DNA of 64,000 bases, taken from NCBI GenBank assembly GCA_964478015.1, contig CAYZGM010000001.1:2981-66980 (forward strand). The letters run 5' to 3'. The DNA comes from an uncultured Planctomycetia bacterium (GTDB taxonomy: Bacteria; Omnitrophota; Gorgyraeia; 2-02-FULL-51-18). Positions 11,130 to 39,061 of the stretch are shown in pieces (position 1 is the first letter of the stretch; the number at the start of each line of letters is the position of its first letter). The notes beneath the pieces were generated by a model. That model searched no databases, was not told the DNA's origin, and saw only the letters and a program-made list of their open reading frames with translations. The position numbers and the translations under genes were made by a program.

Positions 11130-11453
11130 TTAAAACACGTATTCCGGCTCTAGGATGGGACGGTAATTCTCAGGCAGCGGGAATGGGAAAGTCGCGATTT
11201 CATAGATACCGGCACCCGTTCTAACCACGGTCATTCCGGCGCCCTTTGCCAAGCCCAGCGTCATTCCGGTGAATGCATTGTCTTCGACGCTCATATTGTA
11301 AATATTCTTGGGAAGCTCCACCCAACCCGTCAAGGTGTTTGCCACTCCGCGACCCAATTTTGTGAAAGCATCCTGAGCAAAGCAAACAGTTGTTGTCATC
11401 AGGATGAGCATTGCCACGTGCGCTGCCACCCCCTGCCAAAATTTCTTTGTCAT
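11130..11453 (-). CDS. Exosortase-system-associated small secreted protein (TIGR04073-like)
   Basis: About 107 aa with a signal peptide (AAHVAMLILMTTTVCFAQDA) then KLGRGVANTLTGWVELPKNIY and a Gly-rich C-terminal half; this matches my recollection of the TIGR04073 family, which I could not confirm without a search. Confidence 0.55.
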   Translation of the reverse strand: MTKKFWQGVAAHVAMLILMTTTVCFAQDAFTKLGRGVANTLTGWVELPKNIYNMSVEDNAFTGMTLGLAKGAGMTVVRTGAGIYEIATFPFPLPENYRPILEPEYVF

Positions 11454-11479
11454 GCCGACGCCTCCTTAGACCATAAAAT

Positions 11480-14767: not shown

Positions 14768-15361
14768 TTACCGTCGGCGCAGAAAACAATCCTTGTATTT
14801 GCTCGAAAAGCGCGCCTGATCCTTTTTCGCCTCCTCCTTAGAGGCGTATTGTCCGGCGCATACCTGAAAATACTCACCGCTGGGAATGATCGAACTGGTA
14901 AAACCCATTTGTTGGAGGGCCGCCATCTCTGCCTCTGCGAGCGATTTCTTGCGGTGGGTCACCAGCTGGATCGTATAAGGTTTTGCGGACGCTTCCACGG
15001 CTGCCGGTCCCGGGTTTTGGGCCCGTTCCGGTGCCATGGAAATGGTCGGGGAAACTGCCGGTGTTGTCTGCGATCTCTTCTGGTGGGTTTCGATCGTTGG
15101 GGCGGCTGGGCTCGCTTGGATGGTCCGGGATGAGGTTAGGGCAGACCGCACAATAGATTTGCCGCGCAGGACACCCAAGAAAAATACTCCGCAAAGAAGC
15201 AGAATCACGAGAATGCCGCCCATCAACAACTGCTCTGTGTTGGTGCTCAGCAGAATCGGTTTTTGCGACCGCGGCAGGCCCGGAAAACGCTCCGCTTTTT
15301 TTGGCTCTTGCGAAAACTGCTCAAAAAGTTCTTGCTGGGTCTCTTTCGACTTTGGATCCAT
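14768..15361 (-). CDS. SPOR domain protein (peptidoglycan-binding, cell-division associated), single TM
   Basis: TM segment LLMGGILVILLLCGVFFLGVL; C-terminal YTIQLVTHRKKSLAEAEMAALQQMGFTSSIIPSGEYFQVCAGQYASKEEAKK fits the SPOR fold pattern. Confidence 0.7.
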   Translation of the reverse strand: MDPKSKETQQELFEQFSQEPKKAERFPGLPRSQKPILLSTNTEQLLMGGILVILLLCGVFFLGVLRGKSIVRSALTSSRTIQASPAAPTIETHQKRSQTTPAVSPTISMAPERAQNPGPAAVEASAKPYTIQLVTHRKKSLAEAEMAALQQMGFTSSIIPSGEYFQVCAGQYASKEEAKKDQARFSSKYKDCFLRRR

Positions 15362-15413
15362 CTACCATTCTTTCTACGTGTTAAATTAAAAGTGAGGATT
15401 CCGTAGTATACAA

Positions 15414-16001
15414 TTACTGCCAGCTCGCTTCAAGCATTCGGCCGGAAGCTCCGTACAACACCCAGCGCCCTCCGCTGGAAGATATCTTTGCAACGCGAGT
15501 GCCGTCGCCAAATTTTGGAAAACGCCTGTCGACCAATTTTGAGAATGGCTCTAGCGAATTTTCCGGAACGCATAGCCGCAAGAAAATCTTTTGGATTTTT
15601 CCGTTTTTCAAAGAAAATCCCGCGCGCAGCGCCGCCTCTCCGATCCTGCCATCAAGCAACCGCACGCTCCACCCTCCCCGCTTCGGGAGCCACACCCAGC
15701 GAGAATCCTGCAACTCCAAGCGCTCCGTTCCGTTGAAATTTTTAAATATTTGGTTCAAAGAAAAAAGCTGTGTCTTAGACATCTTCCCGAGGGTTATTTT
15801 TTTTATTGAGAATTCGGCGCCAAAAAGAAAGAATTTCGTGTGAATTCCCTGAATTTGAATGGGGTGGCCTGCCATGCGCGCGCATTGGATCGATAACCCT
15901 CGATCTACCAAGGGGTTAGGGAATAAGATCAGGGCGAGTAAAAATGCAGACGCACCGGCAAGGATCGTCATCACAGGTCGGAGGAGCCGACGTTTATGCA
16001 C
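15414..16001 (-). CDS. Hypothetical membrane-anchored protein; start overlaps the stop of the GAF/HD-GYP gene
   Basis: N-terminal hydrophobic anchor VMTILAGASAFLLALILF; no recognisable domain; 8 nt overlap with the upstream gene suggests co-translation. Confidence 0.4.
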   Translation of the reverse strand: MHKRRLLRPVMTILAGASAFLLALILFPNPLVDRGLSIQCARMAGHPIQIQGIHTKFFLFGAEFSIKKITLGKMSKTQLFSLNQIFKNFNGTERLELQDSRWVWLPKRGGWSVRLLDGRIGEAALRAGFSLKNGKIQKIFLRLCVPENSLEPFSKLVDRRFPKFGDGTRVAKISSSGGRWVLYGASGRMLEASWQ

Positions 16002-17172
16002 GCGGCGTTCGCCTCAGTCTCTTATAAAGGCTTTCTTTTTTAACGATGCGAATAAAGGCGTCCACGACTTTCGGATCAAACTGGGATCCACTGTTTCTTT
16101 CAAGCTCCGTCAAAGCCTGAGCCTGCGTCAATTGGCCGCGATAAGGCCGGCCTATGATGATCGCCTCGAAAGCATTCATCACAGACAGAATGCGCGCCCC
16201 GATCGGAATTGCATCGCCGGCCAGCCCCTCCGGATAACCTGTGCCGTCGTATTTTTCGCGGGAGTAGAGAATGATTGGGGCGACGGTTTTCAAGTTTTCA
16301 AATTTTAAGACGATCTTGGCGCCGTGAGCCGGATGATCGCGAAGGGCCCAAAACTCCTCCCGCGTCAGTTTGGAGGGTTTTCTCAGAATTTCCTCTGGGA
16401 TGCCAATCTTGGTGGTTTCTTTCAAAAGAGCCGCATAATGAAGCGCTTGTTTTTGCTCATCGGACAATCCCAGTAAGTCCGCGGTTCTTAGCGCCATATG
16501 GGCGAACATCTCTGGGGACATGACCGATTGGTTGGGCGACCTGCTCCCGAGGATGCTGGCCAGGGACTGGATGGTGCTGAGCGTAACGCGACGCTGCTCC
16601 TCATAGAGCTGGGCGTTCTTGATGGCAATCACCGCTTCTTCCGCGAGGGTGGTCAGGATCTCCAGATCAAAGTGATTAAACGCGTTTCTATCTTTTTTTC
16701 CCGAGACCGTGACGACACCGATAACATCCTCGTCAATGAGCGGGATACAAAGGGTTTTTTTTCTCAGCTGGATTTCCGCGGACTTGGCGACCCGCCCCTC
16801 CATCTTCTTTCCTAGGGAGATCGCTCTCTCTGCGGGCCCCTTTTTTGGATATCCCACAAGCGCCTTGCAGACAAGGTGGCCCTTTTTTTTGTTGCTTTTA
16901 TCAAGCAGGTAGATCGAACACCGGTTTACGCGTAAGACCTGCGCCGTCAAATAAGCAAGCCGGGATACCAGCTCATCGAGGTTTAGGGTTGAATTGATGA
17001 TGCGGTGCACCGTGTGGACGGTCGAAAGCGCGATGGCTCGCGGTCGAATGGTGGCGGAGAGGCGGTTCAACTCCTCGGATTTCCAAAAGTTTTCCAGGCA
17101 GGAATGCAATGCGTACGCAAGCGGCGCTAACGAGGCTTTTGCCGCGTCCGGGGTCGCCTTGGCAATAACCAA
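15994..17172 (-). CDS. GAF domain / degenerate HD-GYP domain protein; the ORF probably extends about 110 codons further upstream (to about 17505) with no canonical start codon
   Basis: GAF-like LCIPLIDEDVIGVVTVS; HD-GYP scaffold with GYP motif YDGTGYPEGL, but the HD dyad is replaced (AALLKETTKIG in place of LLHDIGK) and HHE is replaced by YSRE. Confidence 0.75.
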   Translation of the reverse strand: MVIAKATPDAAKASLAPLAYALHSCLENFWKSEELNRLSATIRPRAIALSTVHTVHRIINSTLNLDELVSRLAYLTAQVLRVNRCSIYLLDKSNKKKGHLVCKALVGYPKKGPAERAISLGKKMEGRVAKSAEIQLRKKTLCIPLIDEDVIGVVTVSGKKDRNAFNHFDLEILTTLAEEAVIAIKNAQLYEEQRRVTLSTIQSLASILGSRSPNQSVMSPEMFAHMALRTADLLGLSDEQKQALHYAALLKETTKIGIPEEILRKPSKLTREEFWALRDHPAHGAKIVLKFENLKTVAPIILYSREKYDGTGYPEGLAGDAIPIGARILSVMNAFEAIIIGRPYRGQLTQAQALTELERNSGSQFDPKVVDAFIRIVKKESLYKRLRRTPRA

Positions 17173-17516
17173 ATAGCCGAGAAAGCGACCTCCAAGATTA
17201 ATCGGTAGACAAAGGAGCGCCTCTTTGTGAGAAAGTTCATGGCAAAGAGCGTGTTCAGACTTGGTGACCCTGCGTTTTAGCGCGGGTGCCGCCTTGCGAA
17301 GCTCTTGTGAAAAGTGATGCGTGTGTCCATCCTGCCAGATAGCGGCGGAAACTTTTGAAGTTTGAAGCCATTGCCGTGCATTCAGTTTGAGTCTCGGCAG
17401 AAGCCACCAGACCGTTCCCGGCAGGCAAAGGCGGAACGCCTCTCTTAGCTTTTTGAGCGCAGGGTCTTTCTGAAGATTATCGAACAGCTCTTTTTCGCCA
17501 GCGATGGTCTGCCTCC

Positions 17517-18695
17517 TTAACCTCTTTCGAATGCTTCAAAAAAACGACGGTACTCGTCCTGAGCGTACCGGTCGGTCATTCCCGCCAGATAATCGCAAAT
17601 GACCCGATGGGGACCCTCGGTTTTGAGCCGCCGCTGACTCCCGGGCGGCAATTGCTCGGGGCGAGACAAATACACCTCAAAGAGCTCGCGCAGAAAGCGG
17701 CGGGCCTTATCGCTCATCCTCACGACCCGGTAATGCCTGTAAAGGCGTGTTTTCAAAAAATCCCTCAACTCTTCGCGTTTCTTGAGGAGTTCCGGACTAA
17801 ACCCGATGAGAAAATGGTCTATTTGCATGGCTTGCGCCGCATTGCGAAGACTGTGCATTTTAATTTTTTTTACCGAATGACGAATTAAGTCCGTCACCTC
17901 TAGGTTGATCAGCCCCCGGATGATCTGATATTTCCTGACGTCTGGATTCTTGATGGATTTGCCGCCAACCTTCGTGCTTACAGCCCTCCACAGAGCCAGC
18001 TTGGCCAGCTCTTCCTCCTTAATAAGACCAGAGGTAAGCCCATCGTCAATGTCATGATTATCATAAGCGATTTCGTCCGCGACATCCACTGTCTGGGATT
18101 CCAGGGACGGCGATAAAAAACTATGAAACTTCCCCATGCCAGACTGTTCGGCTTTCTTAACGAGCTCGGGATGCTTAAAAAGCCCCACTCGGGTTTCATA
18201 AGATAAGTTGAGCCCGCGAAAGGCCGGATAGCGTTCTTCCAAATAATCCACGATGCGTAAGCTTTGGAGGTTGTGATCGAATCCGCCATGATTTACCATA
18301 AGCTCGCGCAGCTCATCTTCCCCGGCGTGCCCAAAGGGGGTATGGCCCAGGTCATGCGCAAGCGTGATGGTTTCGACAAGATCCGAGTTGAGACGCAAGA
18401 CTTTAGCGATGACCCGCGCCACCTGACTGGTTTCCAGCGAATGTGTTAATCGCGTACGGTAATAATCTCCCTCATGGTTCACGAATACCTGTGTTTTGTA
18501 TTCCATTCTCCGAAATGCGGTGCTGTGGATGATGCGGTCCCGGTCGCGTTGAAACGCGGTGCGGTAAGGGTGCTCTTTCTCTCTGTGAACGCGGCCGCGG
18601 CTATCACAGCTTTTGGTGGCATAAGGCGCCAGAGATCTTTTTTCTTCTTTTTCTAAAGTGATGCGACGAACTCCTTGGTTCAAGTTGGTTGTCAT
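17517..18695 (-). CDS. dGTP triphosphohydrolase-like HD-domain protein (Dgt family)
   Basis: RTRLTHSLETSQVARVIA ... ITLAHDLGHTPFGHAGE ... DVADEIAYDNHDIDDG are classic Dgt motifs; the start (MTTNLN) lies 2 nt after the stop of the upstream ATPase gene. Confidence 0.9.
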   Translation of the reverse strand: MTTNLNQGVRRITLEKEEKRSLAPYATKSCDSRGRVHREKEHPYRTAFQRDRDRIIHSTAFRRMEYKTQVFVNHEGDYYRTRLTHSLETSQVARVIAKVLRLNSDLVETITLAHDLGHTPFGHAGEDELRELMVNHGGFDHNLQSLRIVDYLEERYPAFRGLNLSYETRVGLFKHPELVKKAEQSGMGKFHSFLSPSLESQTVDVADEIAYDNHDIDDGLTSGLIKEEELAKLALWRAVSTKVGGKSIKNPDVRKYQIIRGLINLEVTDLIRHSVKKIKMHSLRNAAQAMQIDHFLIGFSPELLKKREELRDFLKTRLYRHYRVVRMSDKARRFLRELFEVYLSRPEQLPPGSQRRLKTEGPHRVICDYLAGMTDRYAQDEYRRFFEAFERG

Positions 18696-18696
18696 T

Positions 18697-20388
18697 TTAC
18701 GCGGATGCGGCCTGAACGGCCGCCGGCACTCCAAGGCGGATGGGTTTTGCGGTTTGAATAATGGGTGATTTGCCGTAGAGGTCCATCAATAGGTTGATGC
18801 GCGAAAGCCCGAGAGTCAGGATTCTTTTTTCTTTGGCAAGGAGTTTGGCATTATCCTCCATCCCATTCAGCGCCAGCAGCACTTTTGTGTGGCTGCTCTT
18901 TTTATCGGAAAAGCCTTGAACCAATTCCAAAACTTCCCGCTCAGTCGCTTTGTCTTCGACAATTTTGCAGACCCAGCAGCGCCCGTTCCCCTTGGCGACA
19001 ATATCCCGGGAGTTTGAATTTGTTTGAGGCCCGGCGGCCGGCCGCAAAAACTCCGAAAAATGAGGAAGTTTACGTTTTTTTTCTCCCAACTCCACGATAT
19101 CGTTCTGAAACTCGCTAAAAAGAGCCAAAATCCGCCTCGAGACATCCACCCCAGATGACGCCTCCTCTTCCTCCAGAACTTCTGTCATGCGACGCAGAAA
19201 ACCCTCGCTTTTTGCGGTAGTCCCTAGGAGGGACAGTTCCTTTTTTTGGTAAACTTCCTTTAGCCAGAACCTGAATGTTTTGTTGTGGAATCGGTAAAAA
19301 ACCCCGTTTTTTACGATTAGCTCATGTTCGATCAGCTCCTGCAGTTGGACCGAGGTCTCACGCTGGTTACGATTGATGCTGGAGGCAATGTCCTTAATCC
19401 GGTTCTTCCCATTGGCGATCTGGGTCAGAATGAGCACGTGGCTTCCTCTGGAAACGGCCTGGGTCCACGGGGAGATCAGTTTGGAGAAATATTGGTTTAA
19501 GACCCCCTGAGACTCGTAAAAAAGTTTGAGGAGTGTTTCACAAACACTTTGTTGGCTGACTTGCGTTTCGTTCTTAGAAAGAGCCAATTCGCGTAATCGA
19601 GAAACGGTGTTCTCCAGTAAAAAAGGATGCCCGTCCGTCAAGGACACGAAAAATTTTTGCAGGGTCATAGGAACTTCGACAGGCGCCATCTTTTGAGTGA
19701 TGAATTGGAAAGCGGTTTCAAAATCAAAAGCCTCCAGATACACGCGCTCAAAATGACCGAATAACAACGTCAACTTTTCAGCCAAAATCTTCCGACTTTG
19801 AGAAAAAGAAGAGCTGGAAAGAATGTACAGAGTGTCTTTTTGAACCATGATGCGTTTGCCAAAATCCGAAAATGCATTCTTGATTCCGAATTCGCCAAGC
19901 CGGTGAAATTCATCCAGGATCACAATGGTGTTCTTGCCCGTCTCCTGTTTAAGGACATGGGTCAACTCAAACAGTTTCACGTAGGCTTCCTCCGCGTGCC
20001 GCTGCTTCAGCAAGACTGCTATTTCTCCGATGCGGGAAACGGTCTTTGGGATAAAAGCGCTCGCCTTTTCCGCAAGGGAAATCAGCGTGTCCGCCGGGTC
20101 CGCTTCCCCGCGCTGAGTCAAATACTGGTAAAGCAGGGATCGAATGAATTGATCGACGAAATAGTCCAGGGCTTGAAACTTGATTTCAACGTAGATGGGA
20201 AGAATTTCCTCGTCACGAAAAACGTGCATGAAGTGACGCAGGACTGATGATTTTCCGAGTTGCTGATGTCCGATGATCGCGACATTCTGGCGGTAACCAG
20301 ACTTGAGCCCATTCGCGCGCTTGATCAGAAGATCAATTACTTCTTGTCGGCCAAAGAAATTATCGCCGACAACGGGATCGCTGAACAT
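18697..20388 (-). CDS. PF01637-type (archaeal-ATPase-like) P-loop NTPase with a DUF234-like winged-helix region and a C-terminal domain carrying a candidate PD-(D/E)xK motif
   Basis: FFGRQEVIDLL ... VAIIGHQQLGKSSVL Walker A; IVILDEFHRL Walker B; wHTH-like IKDIASSINRNQRETSVQLQELIEHELIVKNGVFYRF; C-terminal RDIVAKGNGRCWVCKIVEDK (D...EDK). Confidence 0.75.
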   Translation of the reverse strand: MFSDPVVGDNFFGRQEVIDLLIKRANGLKSGYRQNVAIIGHQQLGKSSVLRHFMHVFRDEEILPIYVEIKFQALDYFVDQFIRSLLYQYLTQRGEADPADTLISLAEKASAFIPKTVSRIGEIAVLLKQRHAEEAYVKLFELTHVLKQETGKNTIVILDEFHRLGEFGIKNAFSDFGKRIMVQKDTLYILSSSSFSQSRKILAEKLTLLFGHFERVYLEAFDFETAFQFITQKMAPVEVPMTLQKFFVSLTDGHPFLLENTVSRLRELALSKNETQVSQQSVCETLLKLFYESQGVLNQYFSKLISPWTQAVSRGSHVLILTQIANGKNRIKDIASSINRNQRETSVQLQELIEHELIVKNGVFYRFHNKTFRFWLKEVYQKKELSLLGTTAKSEGFLRRMTEVLEEEEASSGVDVSRRILALFSEFQNDIVELGEKKRKLPHFSEFLRPAAGPQTNSNSRDIVAKGNGRCWVCKIVEDKATEREVLELVQGFSDKKSSHTKVLLALNGMEDNAKLLAKEKRILTLGLSRINLLMDLYGKSPIIQTAKPIRLGVPAAVQAASA

Positions 20389-37424: not shown

Positions 37425-38537
37425 TTAATTCAATGCAAGGCGGAGGATTTTTTCGGCAGAATTCAGACAACGAATCTTTTCTATCGCCTCGGAGGCTTCG
37501 CGGTAAAGCCGGGTGTCTTTCCGAAAGGCGGTGACCTGCTCCACGACCTCGTTCAGAGATCGGGCCCTTTTAGCCGCGCCGCAGGCCACGACCTGGTCCA
37601 CATTACGTGTTTCCTGCCCGGGCACGGCGCCAAAGAGCACCATGGGTTTCCCAACACAGAGGCTTTCGGTGATCGTGAGGCCGCCGCCTTTGCCCACAAT
37701 AAGGTCGGAGGCAGCCATCAGCTCGTGGATATTGTCAACAAAGCCGTAGAAATGCAGCCAAGGTCTGCCCGCGTATTTGCCGCGGAGCTGGTTTAAAAGA
37801 GTGCCATTTGTTCCGCAAACCACCAGTTGCTGCATCGGCGGTTCCAAAATAGAGAGGCGATCCACCAGCGCGCCCGCAATTCCCACCCCCGCGCCCCCGC
37901 TTGTCACAAGCACCGTGAAAGCCGACGGGTCGAGCCCAAGGCTTCGAGAGGCTTGATCGCGCGTCAACCCGCTTGAAAATTTCGGTTCGATCGGGATGCC
38001 GGTTATGCTGATTTTTTCCTCCGGAACCCCGCGTCGGACCATCGCTTCCTTTGTCAGCTGTGTCGCCACCGCGTAGGAATCAGTTTGGCCGGTGATCCAG
38101 AAAGAATGCGGCATGTAGTCGGTGACCACGGTGATAAGCCGGCATTTCACCCGGCCTGTTTTTTTTAGGTTGCTCACGACCTCGGTCGCCAAAAAATGCG
38201 TGGCGATGACTACGTCCGGCGCTTCAGACTCGACGAATGTTTCCAAGTTTTTCGCAAAAAATTGATTGTTCACACGCCTCAGCGGCCGGATAAAAAAATA
38301 GGCCCAACCCCAATCCGTGACGGCATATAAAAACCCCCATAGCCACGGGATTTGGCGGATCATGAAAAAATAGACCGCCCGGTAGCCGTCGCCGAAACAA
38401 CCGGAAGTCATCTTTAACATGTCGACAAGGCCGACCTCGGAGACACCGGCTTTGTGACACTCGGCCTCCATGGCCTTGGCCGCTTTTTCGTGGCCGTGTC
38501 CCGCACTGGCATAGAGGATCAGGATTTTAGAAGCCAT
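37425..38537 (-). CDS. Monoglycosyl-diacylglycerol synthase-family glycosyltransferase (GT28, MGDG_synth N-domain)
   Basis: MASKILILYASAGHGHEKAAKAM N-terminus, GT-B C-domain GGGLTITESLCVGKPMVL. Confidence 0.8.
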   Translation of the reverse strand: MASKILILYASAGHGHEKAAKAMEAECHKAGVSEVGLVDMLKMTSGCFGDGYRAVYFFMIRQIPWLWGFLYAVTDWGWAYFFIRPLRRVNNQFFAKNLETFVESEAPDVVIATHFLATEVVSNLKKTGRVKCRLITVVTDYMPHSFWITGQTDSYAVATQLTKEAMVRRGVPEEKISITGIPIEPKFSSGLTRDQASRSLGLDPSAFTVLVTSGGAGVGIAGALVDRLSILEPPMQQLVVCGTNGTLLNQLRGKYAGRPWLHFYGFVDNIHELMAASDLIVGKGGGLTITESLCVGKPMVLFGAVPGQETRNVDQVVACGAAKRARSLNEVVEQVTAFRKDTRLYREASEAIEKIRCLNSAEKILRLALN

Positions 38538-39061
38538 TCAGCCGCCTCCTTGAGATCTTTTTTGATGACATCGGGCTTTATCCTCAGGGCAGCAACATCC
38601 TTTTTTTTTAGACGCCCCGAAAGAACAAGAACGGTGCGGCAGCCAAAATTTTTTCCCGCCAGAATATCCTCCTCCGAGTCCCCGATAAAATAGAGTTTCG
38701 AACGGTCGGGACGCCGACCCCGCATCGCTTTTTTAAGCAGGGCGGTTTTAGGTTTCTTGCATTCGCAGCAGTCCGTCGTTTGATGGGTGCAATAATAAAC
38801 TTTTCGGATTCGGCCGCCAACGCGGCGAATCCTTTGAAGCATTTGCCGGGTCATTTGGTTCAGAGTTTTTTTTGTAAGAAGCCCGCGAGAAACGCAGCCC
38901 TGGTTCGAAATCACGACAAGCTCATAACCGGCCCGGGTCAGTTTTTTTATGGCCCCCAGAGCCCGGGGAAAGATTTTGAAATCGGCGAGGCTTGTCACGT
39001 ATCGCCCTTTTCCGGGAAATCGATTGATAACCCCGTCCCGGTCAAGAAATGCGAAGCGCAT
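38519..39061 (-). CDS. gmhB: D-glycero-D-manno-heptose 1,7-bisphosphate phosphatase (HAD IIIA)
   Basis: FLDRDGVIN DxD motif, VVISNQ, C-terminal GDSEEDILAG; the long ORF-track N-extension is rejected and the start set at MRFAFLDRDG. Confidence 0.85.
   Translation of the reverse strand: MRFAFLDRDGVINRFPGKGRYVTSLADFKIFPRALGAIKKLTRAGYELVVISNQGCVSRGLLTKKTLNQMTRQMLQRIRRVGGRIRKVYYCTHQTTDCCECKKPKTALLKKAMRGRRPDRSKLYFIGDSEEDILAGKNFGCRTVLVLSGRLKKKDVAALRIKPDVIKKDLKEAAEWLLKS

Follow-up and report, generated by a model that had tools for sequence, protein, structure and literature searches.

A conserved AUC codon as the probable start of a GAF/HD-GYP-like gene in uncultivated Omnitrophota

Results

Layout of the dGTPase-GAF/HD-GYP junction

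The window, a 64,000-nt stretch of contig CAYZGM010000001.1 from an uncultured bacterium of the phylum Omnitrophota, carries on its minus strand a dGTPase-like HD phosphohydrolase gene (17517..18695; 392 aa from an ATG at 18695; Pfam HD and HD_assoc) and, downstream of it, a gene for a protein with a GAF domain and a degenerate HD-GYP domain. Automatic annotation starts the second gene at a TTG (17170..17172). The original prediction, made from this DNA alone, was that the gene begins well upstream of the TTG, in a frame that is open back to an in-frame TGA (17536..17538, minus strand) and contains no ATG, GTG or TTG. On re-reading, the coordinates were right and the three canonical codons were absent between the TGA at 17538-17536 and the TTG at 17172, although this run comprises 121 codons rather than the 115 first counted, a minor miscount.

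At the junction of the two genes the minus strand reads TAAGGAGG-N6-ATC (17519-17503), an arrangement that had likewise been predicted and that is read directly from the DNA. The Shine-Dalgarno (SD) sequence TAAGGAGG occupies 17512..17519, with AGGAGG at 17517-17512, and overlaps the TAA stop codon of the dGTPase-like gene (17517..17519, read as 17519-17517). A spacer of six nucleotides, CAGACC (17511-17506), separates AGGAGG from the ATC (17503..17505, minus strand), which we propose as the initiation codon. The ATC and the dGTPase TAA are out of frame with each other; the ATC lies 10 codons downstream of the TGA that closes its own frame and is in frame with the annotated TTG, 111 codons upstream of it. 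Read from the ATC, the revised full-length CDS would extend over 15994..17505 (minus strand) and, by translation, comprise 503 codons and a stop. The 111 codons overlooked by gene callers (17173..17505, minus strand) would then encode most of a compact α/β domain (residues about 1-118), and the annotated TTG would be an internal leucine codon, residue 112. The GGAGG closest to the TTG is located 16 nt upstream of it, beyond the usable SD distance.

ATG, GTG and TTG together make up 6.45% of the codons in the 27 other genes of the window, and from this share the probability of a start-free run of 121 codons at a given place is about 3e-4. Start-free runs reach a maximum of 101 codons inside those same 27 genes; the length of the run is thus a chance tail that exposes the case and not a biological signal. 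Selection against canonical codons in the N-terminal region was rejected in view of these 101-codon runs elsewhere and of relatives that carry some canonical codons at +5 to +39. No second long open start-free 5' stretch was found among the approximately 55 gene-like ORFs of the window, of which this one is the sole outlier, and genome-wide use of non-canonical starts was rejected since the scan gave no other case. The strength of the SD sequence does set the site apart. The duplex with the anti-SD has an energy of -11.9 kcal/mol here, compared to a median of -3.5 kcal/mol at 31 unambiguous window starts, and was matched by one of the 31 other window starts. The window genome is SD-poor, and the SD before the ATC is among its strongest.

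The upstream 111 codons as coding sequence

Used as query, the 503-aa protein translated from the ATC returned thousands of homologues, the best of which are about 500 aa in length and come from Omnitrophota metagenome-assembled genomes. These orthologues of about 500 aa span 99-100% of the query, whereas the database entry with 100% identity, P0001, is a truncated 392-aa call from the TTG at 17172. Conserved positions occur all through the extension in the alignment; W33 is invariant, and W34, W57, D59, P101 and G110 are near-invariant. For codons 2-111, dN/dS between ATC-bearing lineages was 0.08-0.22, with dS ranging from 0.7 up to saturation. This conservation, together with the dN/dS values, indicates that the 111-codon segment is translated and is under purifying selection, and on these comparative grounds we regard it as genuine coding sequence. 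The predicted extension of the gene by about 110 codons upstream of the TTG is therefore upheld. So is the alignment with orthologs that had been suggested as a check on it, in which the ATC position corresponds to Met1/ATG in close relatives and the extension is conserved.

Domains of the full-length protein

Pfam places a GAF domain at residues 175-297 and an HD_5 domain at residues 292-480 (E 1.8e-39) of the 503-aa protein; no hit with E ≤ 1, to the GAF profiles PF01590, PF13185 and PF13492 or to any other, fell within residues 1-111, and the full protein had none N-terminal to residue 175. AlphaFold2 predicted residues 1-125 to form a compact α/β domain (pLDDT 86.5, pTM 0.80) with strands at residues 32-36, 87-90, 96-104 and 107-117, followed by a long helix and then the GAF domain. 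The original prediction held that a start at the TTG would cut a GAF domain in half. The TTG, as residue 112, does fall within the last predicted strand (107-117) and would cut a confidently predicted N-terminal domain, but this domain is not detectably a GAF domain. An alignment of the N-terminal segment with the protein's own GAF domain by hhalign covered 22 columns only, a hairpin, at a probability of 46%, and Foldseek with the N-terminal domain gave nothing below E 0.05, the fold searches being non-specific; together with the negative Pfam result, these data leave a GAF assignment unsupported. A GAF profile match in the upstream residues had been proposed as the point on which the extension would stand or fall, and Pfam found none. 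Because conservation shows the segment to be coding, the missing match is not a valid refutation of the extension.

The remainder of the protein (residues about 170-500) best matched PmGH, the GAF-HD-GYP c-di-GMP phosphodiesterase of Persephonella marina (PDB 4mcw; Foldseek E 2.4e-15, phmmer E 1.9e-29). The GAF and HD-GYP architecture is common to both, as is the GYP motif, present in the window protein as DGTGYPEG. Unlike PmGH, the window protein carries an additional N-terminal domain (about 118 residues), joined by a long helix to the GAF domain, and its motifs differ as well: aligned to 4mcw, it has K-E for the HD dyad and SRE for HHE, with LKD/LKE and YSRE occurring family-wide. These replacements make metal binding and catalysis doubtful, and the protein is probably not an active c-di-GMP phosphodiesterase.

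The start codon position in related genomes

Junction DNA of the window was compared with that of 13 relatives within its subclade and of eight more distantly related orthologues. Pattern scans of genome and metagenome contigs yielded only nine and three loci, respectively, because the patterns were derived from a single protein. Among the 14 subclade loci, the codon homologous to the ATC was ATC in 10 (the window, L003, L004, L005, L006, L007, L015, L020, L022 and L023), ATT in one (L024) and ATG in three (L018, L019 and L021), where it is the codon of Met1. The interchange is illustrated by L022 and L021, whose proteins read ITDREL and MTDREL. The N-terminus is pinned to the ATC codon, and ATC/ATT and ATG swap at exactly that codon. 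In the more distant orthologues, the ATG start lies 3-6 codons 5' of this position and 0-7 nt beyond the stop of the dGTPase gene.

Residues 5' of the ATC/ATT codon are not conserved as protein. The upstream in-frame stop lies 1-24 codons before the ATC/ATT, and in nine of the 11 loci with these codons the interval is free of canonical starts; in L006, it is a single codon long. An upstream TTG is present in L003 and L015, inside the dGTPase gene. The use of ATC rather than ATT is not evidence in itself, since ATC is the ordinary preferred isoleucine codon: it accounts for 80% of conserved internal isoleucine codons, and of 17 such columns, 7 likewise have ATC in at least 10 of 11 sequences. 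Against this internal control, selection for ATC over ATT or ATA was not significant and was not considered further.

Identical DNA, with the ATC, is present in two further assemblies of this organism, L002 and L001, the latter from Hainich groundwater; this excludes an assembly error. The suggestion in the original prediction that a point error might have removed the start was abandoned, as was sequencing error in general, since the ATC recurs in all three assemblies and in nine other lineages. The same observations bear on the alternative that the short 392-aa protein from the TTG at 17172 is the sole product, with the upstream 111 codons a recent remnant left after an ATG-to-ATC mutation or created by a sequencing error. 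Public automatic annotation calls exactly this protein (P0001), and the first 111 residues lack a Pfam domain. However, a recent remnant would not be expected to share its ATC with lineages that diverge down to 58-60% protein identity, nor to keep an open frame under the constraint seen in the dN/dS values between ATC lineages. The TTG at 17172 also lies inside a predicted β-strand of a confident domain and is without an SD at usable spacing. We consider the short protein as sole product very improbable.

A further alternative is that each genome uses a start codon of its own, either a TTG or CTG at the leucine of 'ELF' 5-7 codons downstream (Leu7 in the window) or a later canonical codon, so that the ATC is merely the last untranslated codon or an internal one. 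In L003, L004, L015, L020 and L022, the 'ELF' leucine is indeed encoded by TTG, a potential start that gene callers chose in three database entries (P0003, P0008 and P0010), and in the window, L005 and L006 it is the near-cognate CTG. The original prediction had named this CTG (17485..17487, minus strand) as a second candidate start. The codon varies among CTG, TTG, CTA (L007), CTT (L023) and CTC (L019) by locus, however, which is ordinary synonymous drift, and the leucine is 18-24 nt past the SD (24 nt in the window), out of functional spacing; the CTG was rejected as a start on both counts. The next canonical codon downstream of the ATC/ATT is found at +5 to +111 codons, depending on the locus. 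In L007, L023, L024, L005, L006 and the window it is at +19 to +111, and a protein started there would lack conserved residues on which purifying selection acts. Starts that differ per genome would also leave unexplained the strong SD that is located 4-8 nt before the ATC/ATT in 11 of 11 loci and is gone where the codon is ATG. In light of these points, a separate start in each genome appears improbable.

Start codon switches and SD strength

The relationships among the loci were assessed with a neighbor-joining tree of one protein and 100 bootstraps. Of these 100 bootstraps, 86 recovered as monophyletic the subclade with its start at the ATC-homologous position. The three ATG lineages, nested inside this subclade, formed a monophyletic group in 0 of 100, and L015, with ATC, and L018, with ATG, were sisters in 100 of 100. 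The tree thus points to at least two independent switches between ATC and ATG.

Pairing energies were computed against the canonical anti-SD, which was assumed for these organisms. The anti-SD duplex ranged from -7.3 to -12.1 kcal/mol at the 11 loci with ATC/ATT starts, with spacers of 4-8 nt, and from -3.9 to -6.3 kcal/mol at the 11 loci with ATG starts, with spacers of 0-12 nt. SD strength fully separates the two groups (Mann-Whitney p = 4e-5, phylogeny ignored), and the strong SD is lost in the nested ATG lineages. A weak codon is thus paired with an exceptional SD, and the pairing dissolves when the codon is ATG, as would be expected if ATC/ATT were the functional initiation codon. The prediction of an AUC start behind the SD is borne out in this comparison: the ATC aligns with Met1, ATC/ATT occurs in 11 divergent lineages and the SD covaries with the codon. 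We conclude with good, though not full, confidence that translation of the GAF/HD-GYP-like gene starts at the AUC (17505-17503) and yields a 503-residue protein.

Relation to translation of the dGTPase gene

Synteny of the dGTPase gene and the GAF/HD-GYP-like gene is conserved in all related loci, and along the whole operon, genes overlap or directly adjoin one another. At each of the 11 ATC/ATT loci, the dGTPase stop codon lies within or right next to the SD; the combined stop/SD takes the forms TAAGGAGG, TAGGAG, TAGGGAG and TAAGGGAG, 8-15 nt before the start. Such an arrangement might also be read as recoding, where stop readthrough or programmed frameshifting in the dGTPase gene yields a dGTPase-GAF-HD-GYP fusion and no independent initiation occurs. 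The two genes are always adjacent, and in L004, L005, L007, L020 and L024 the dGTPase stop and the ATC/ATT share a frame. Across the 11 loci, however, the offset from stop to ATC/ATT falls in all three frames (e.g., 14 nt in the window, 16 nt in L003, 15 nt in L004 and 11 nt in L023), which excludes a fusion by readthrough or frameshifting. A conserved slippery site is absent, the residues that a fusion would include between the dGTPase stop and the ATC lack conservation, and the ATG-bearing relatives clearly initiate independently. Recoding is therefore left with a very small probability.

For the AUC start, we propose the following mechanism. The initiator tRNA would pair with the AUC with its third position mismatched, and the near-perfect SD TAAGGAGG, 6 nt upstream, would offset the poor codon. 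Ribosomes fresh from the dGTPase TAA inside the SD would probably boost initiation further through termination-reinitiation coupling, and the expected result would be a signalling protein made at a low, tightly set level. We infer that initiation at the AUC uses fMet-tRNA, that the protein is made at a low level and that coupling plays a part. For the last of these, the position of the dGTPase stop suggests that termination-reinitiation probably contributes to AUC initiation.

Whether coupling could account for all of the initiation is a variant of the AUC start and is not exclusive of it. In this variant, AUC initiation would depend wholly on reinitiation, de novo initiation by 30S subunits would be negligible, and the protein would be made at a fixed low ratio to dGTPase. 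The stop codon in or abutting the SD at every ATC/ATT locus fits such dependence, as do the overlapping or abutting genes of the operon and the distant orthologues, whose ATG closely follows the stop without an SD, a classic form of tight coupling. On the other hand, a strong SD at optimal spacing is also enough for de novo 30S binding, and sequence cannot separate the two modes. The SD is furthermore not sequestered by stable structure: no significant mRNA structure sequestering it was found around the junction (z = -1.3). Complete dependence on reinitiation is thus a reasonable possibility, but one that we would place somewhat below even chances.

Discussion

AUU start codons serve infC and pcnB in E. 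coli, and infC of Listeria monocytogenes starts with ATT. As in such genes, a near-cognate AUH codon appears here to be the conserved start of a normal protein-coding gene, although the present gene belongs to a different family (GAF / degenerate HD-GYP signalling) and to a different phylum (uncultivated Omnitrophota). Conservation of the codon is also much deeper, to about 60% protein identity, and is accompanied by clear covariation with SD strength and by repeated ATC-to-ATG switching; unlike the earlier cases, the present one is a prediction from sequence. For infC, the unusual codon is part of IF3 autoregulation, whereas no comparable autoregulatory logic is evident for the GAF/HD-GYP-like gene. 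ATC itself is a fixed and experimentally confirmed start in Listeria rnhC, and lineage-wide fixed use of a non-canonical codon has been reported for Listeria rnhC and infC; such codons make up <0.3% of Listeria starts (PMC13068326). In E. coli, AUC initiates at 1-2% of the AUG level (0.02-3% across constructs) and the product carries an N-terminal Met (bioRxiv 10.1101/063800). Given this weak initiation in E. coli, the level of the GAF/HD-GYP-like protein may be very low. On the comparative evidence, we consider the gene a well-supported addition to the known rare class of AUH start codons, and one that is kept across a deep Omnitrophota clade.

The site also resembles known termination-reinitiation systems, with the stop codon likewise 8-15 nt before the start and overlapping the SD, and with distant orthologues that show the TGATG, TAAATG and stop-N2-ATG arrangements. 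It differs from them in that the start is AUC/AUU and not AUG, GUG or UUG, and in that the spacer is widened to make room for a strong SD; coupling itself is probable here.

The AUC and the strong SD overlapping the stop could be more than a tolerated weak start and together form a conserved regulatory device, a reading that is speculative and that we consider rather unlikely. If it were true, output would be set by start-codon fidelity, through the IF3 level or the state of the ribosome, and by translation of the dGTPase gene. The abundance of the protein would then report translational or nucleotide status, extending an infC-like logic to second-messenger signalling, and the repeated ATC-to-ATG reversions with loss of the SD would represent alternative routes to one expression set-point.

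Apart from any regulatory role, the clade offers a clean comparative case, in which an AUC start appears to be conserved and start codon and SD strength covary over independent switches in a largely SD-poor phylum. It may serve as a natural system in which to examine how a weak start codon is compensated and whether termination-reinitiation makes the choice of start codon less strict.

All public calls examined for the ATC/ATT lineages misplace the start. The proteins are truncated by 19 to 111 residues (P0001, P0004, P0005, P0012, P0019 and P0020), set to begin at the TTG 5-7 codons downstream (the three entries named above) or over-extended into the dGTPase gene (P0002 and P0011). As a result of these wrong starts, the whole conserved N-terminal domain is absent from several database entries. 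A search of metagenome-assembled genomes for long 'intergenic' gaps that remain open in the reading frame of the gene that follows could be a practical way to screen for non-canonical starts. At the locus of P0021, a gap of 272 nt after the dGTPase gene suggests a further case of the same kind.

Results and Discussion

The GAF/HD-GYP-like gene lies in a conserved gene cluster (minus strand, 14768-20388 of the window) that also occurs at loci L003, L004 and L018-L024 of relatives. Across the family the order is ATPase_2/AAA_16, dGTPase-like HD, GAF/HD-GYP-like, a hypothetical protein of ~195 aa and a SPOR-domain protein, and the overlapping or abutting junctions between these genes suggest a single translationally coupled operon. 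Mechanical ORF calling starts the dGTPase-like gene (5’ end, minus strand, 18693-18734) at TTG 18734. Its actual start is ATG 18695, as indicated by orthologues 390-393 aa long and by the TAAAATG sequence where the ATPase gene upstream meets it.

Most genes in the window have a weak or absent SD (median -3.5 kcal/mol), and starts that overlap or directly adjoin the stop of the preceding gene are numerous. Among the other unambiguous starts in the window, the SD ahead of the proposed ATC is matched in strength at just two, namely TAAGGAGGC-N6-ATG (11453-11475) and CAAGGAGGC-N6-ATG (38537-38560), both on the minus strand.

Other family proteins in databases (P0021, P0023, P0025, P0029 and P0043) begin 20-90 residues too late and are probably additional instances of an ATC or ATT start. 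At the P0021 locus (ENA ERZ27296333), a 272-nt gap lies downstream of the dGTPase gene.

When the window protein was aligned to PmGH (4mcw), the c-di-GMP phosphodiesterase of Persephonella marina, the GYP motif was found in both, whereas the HD-GYP domain of the window protein (residues ~300-500; minus strand, 15997-16620) is otherwise degenerate, with K-E replacing the HD dyad in 'AALLKETTKIGIP' and SRE replacing the HHE motif in 'ILYSREKYDGTGYPEGL'. Equivalent substitutions (LKD/LKE and YSRE) run throughout the family, which argues that its members are probably non-catalytic.

Of the relatives that are not identical to the window, L005 is the nearest: identity is 81% at full length and 88% when the comparison is confined to its called protein of 378 aa. 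It encodes 468 aa compared with 503 aa in the window. At L005:100-180, ~35 residues of the N-terminal domain, corresponding to window residues ~35-70, are deleted in frame, which could be a genuine variant or a misassembly of the 1.6-kb contig.
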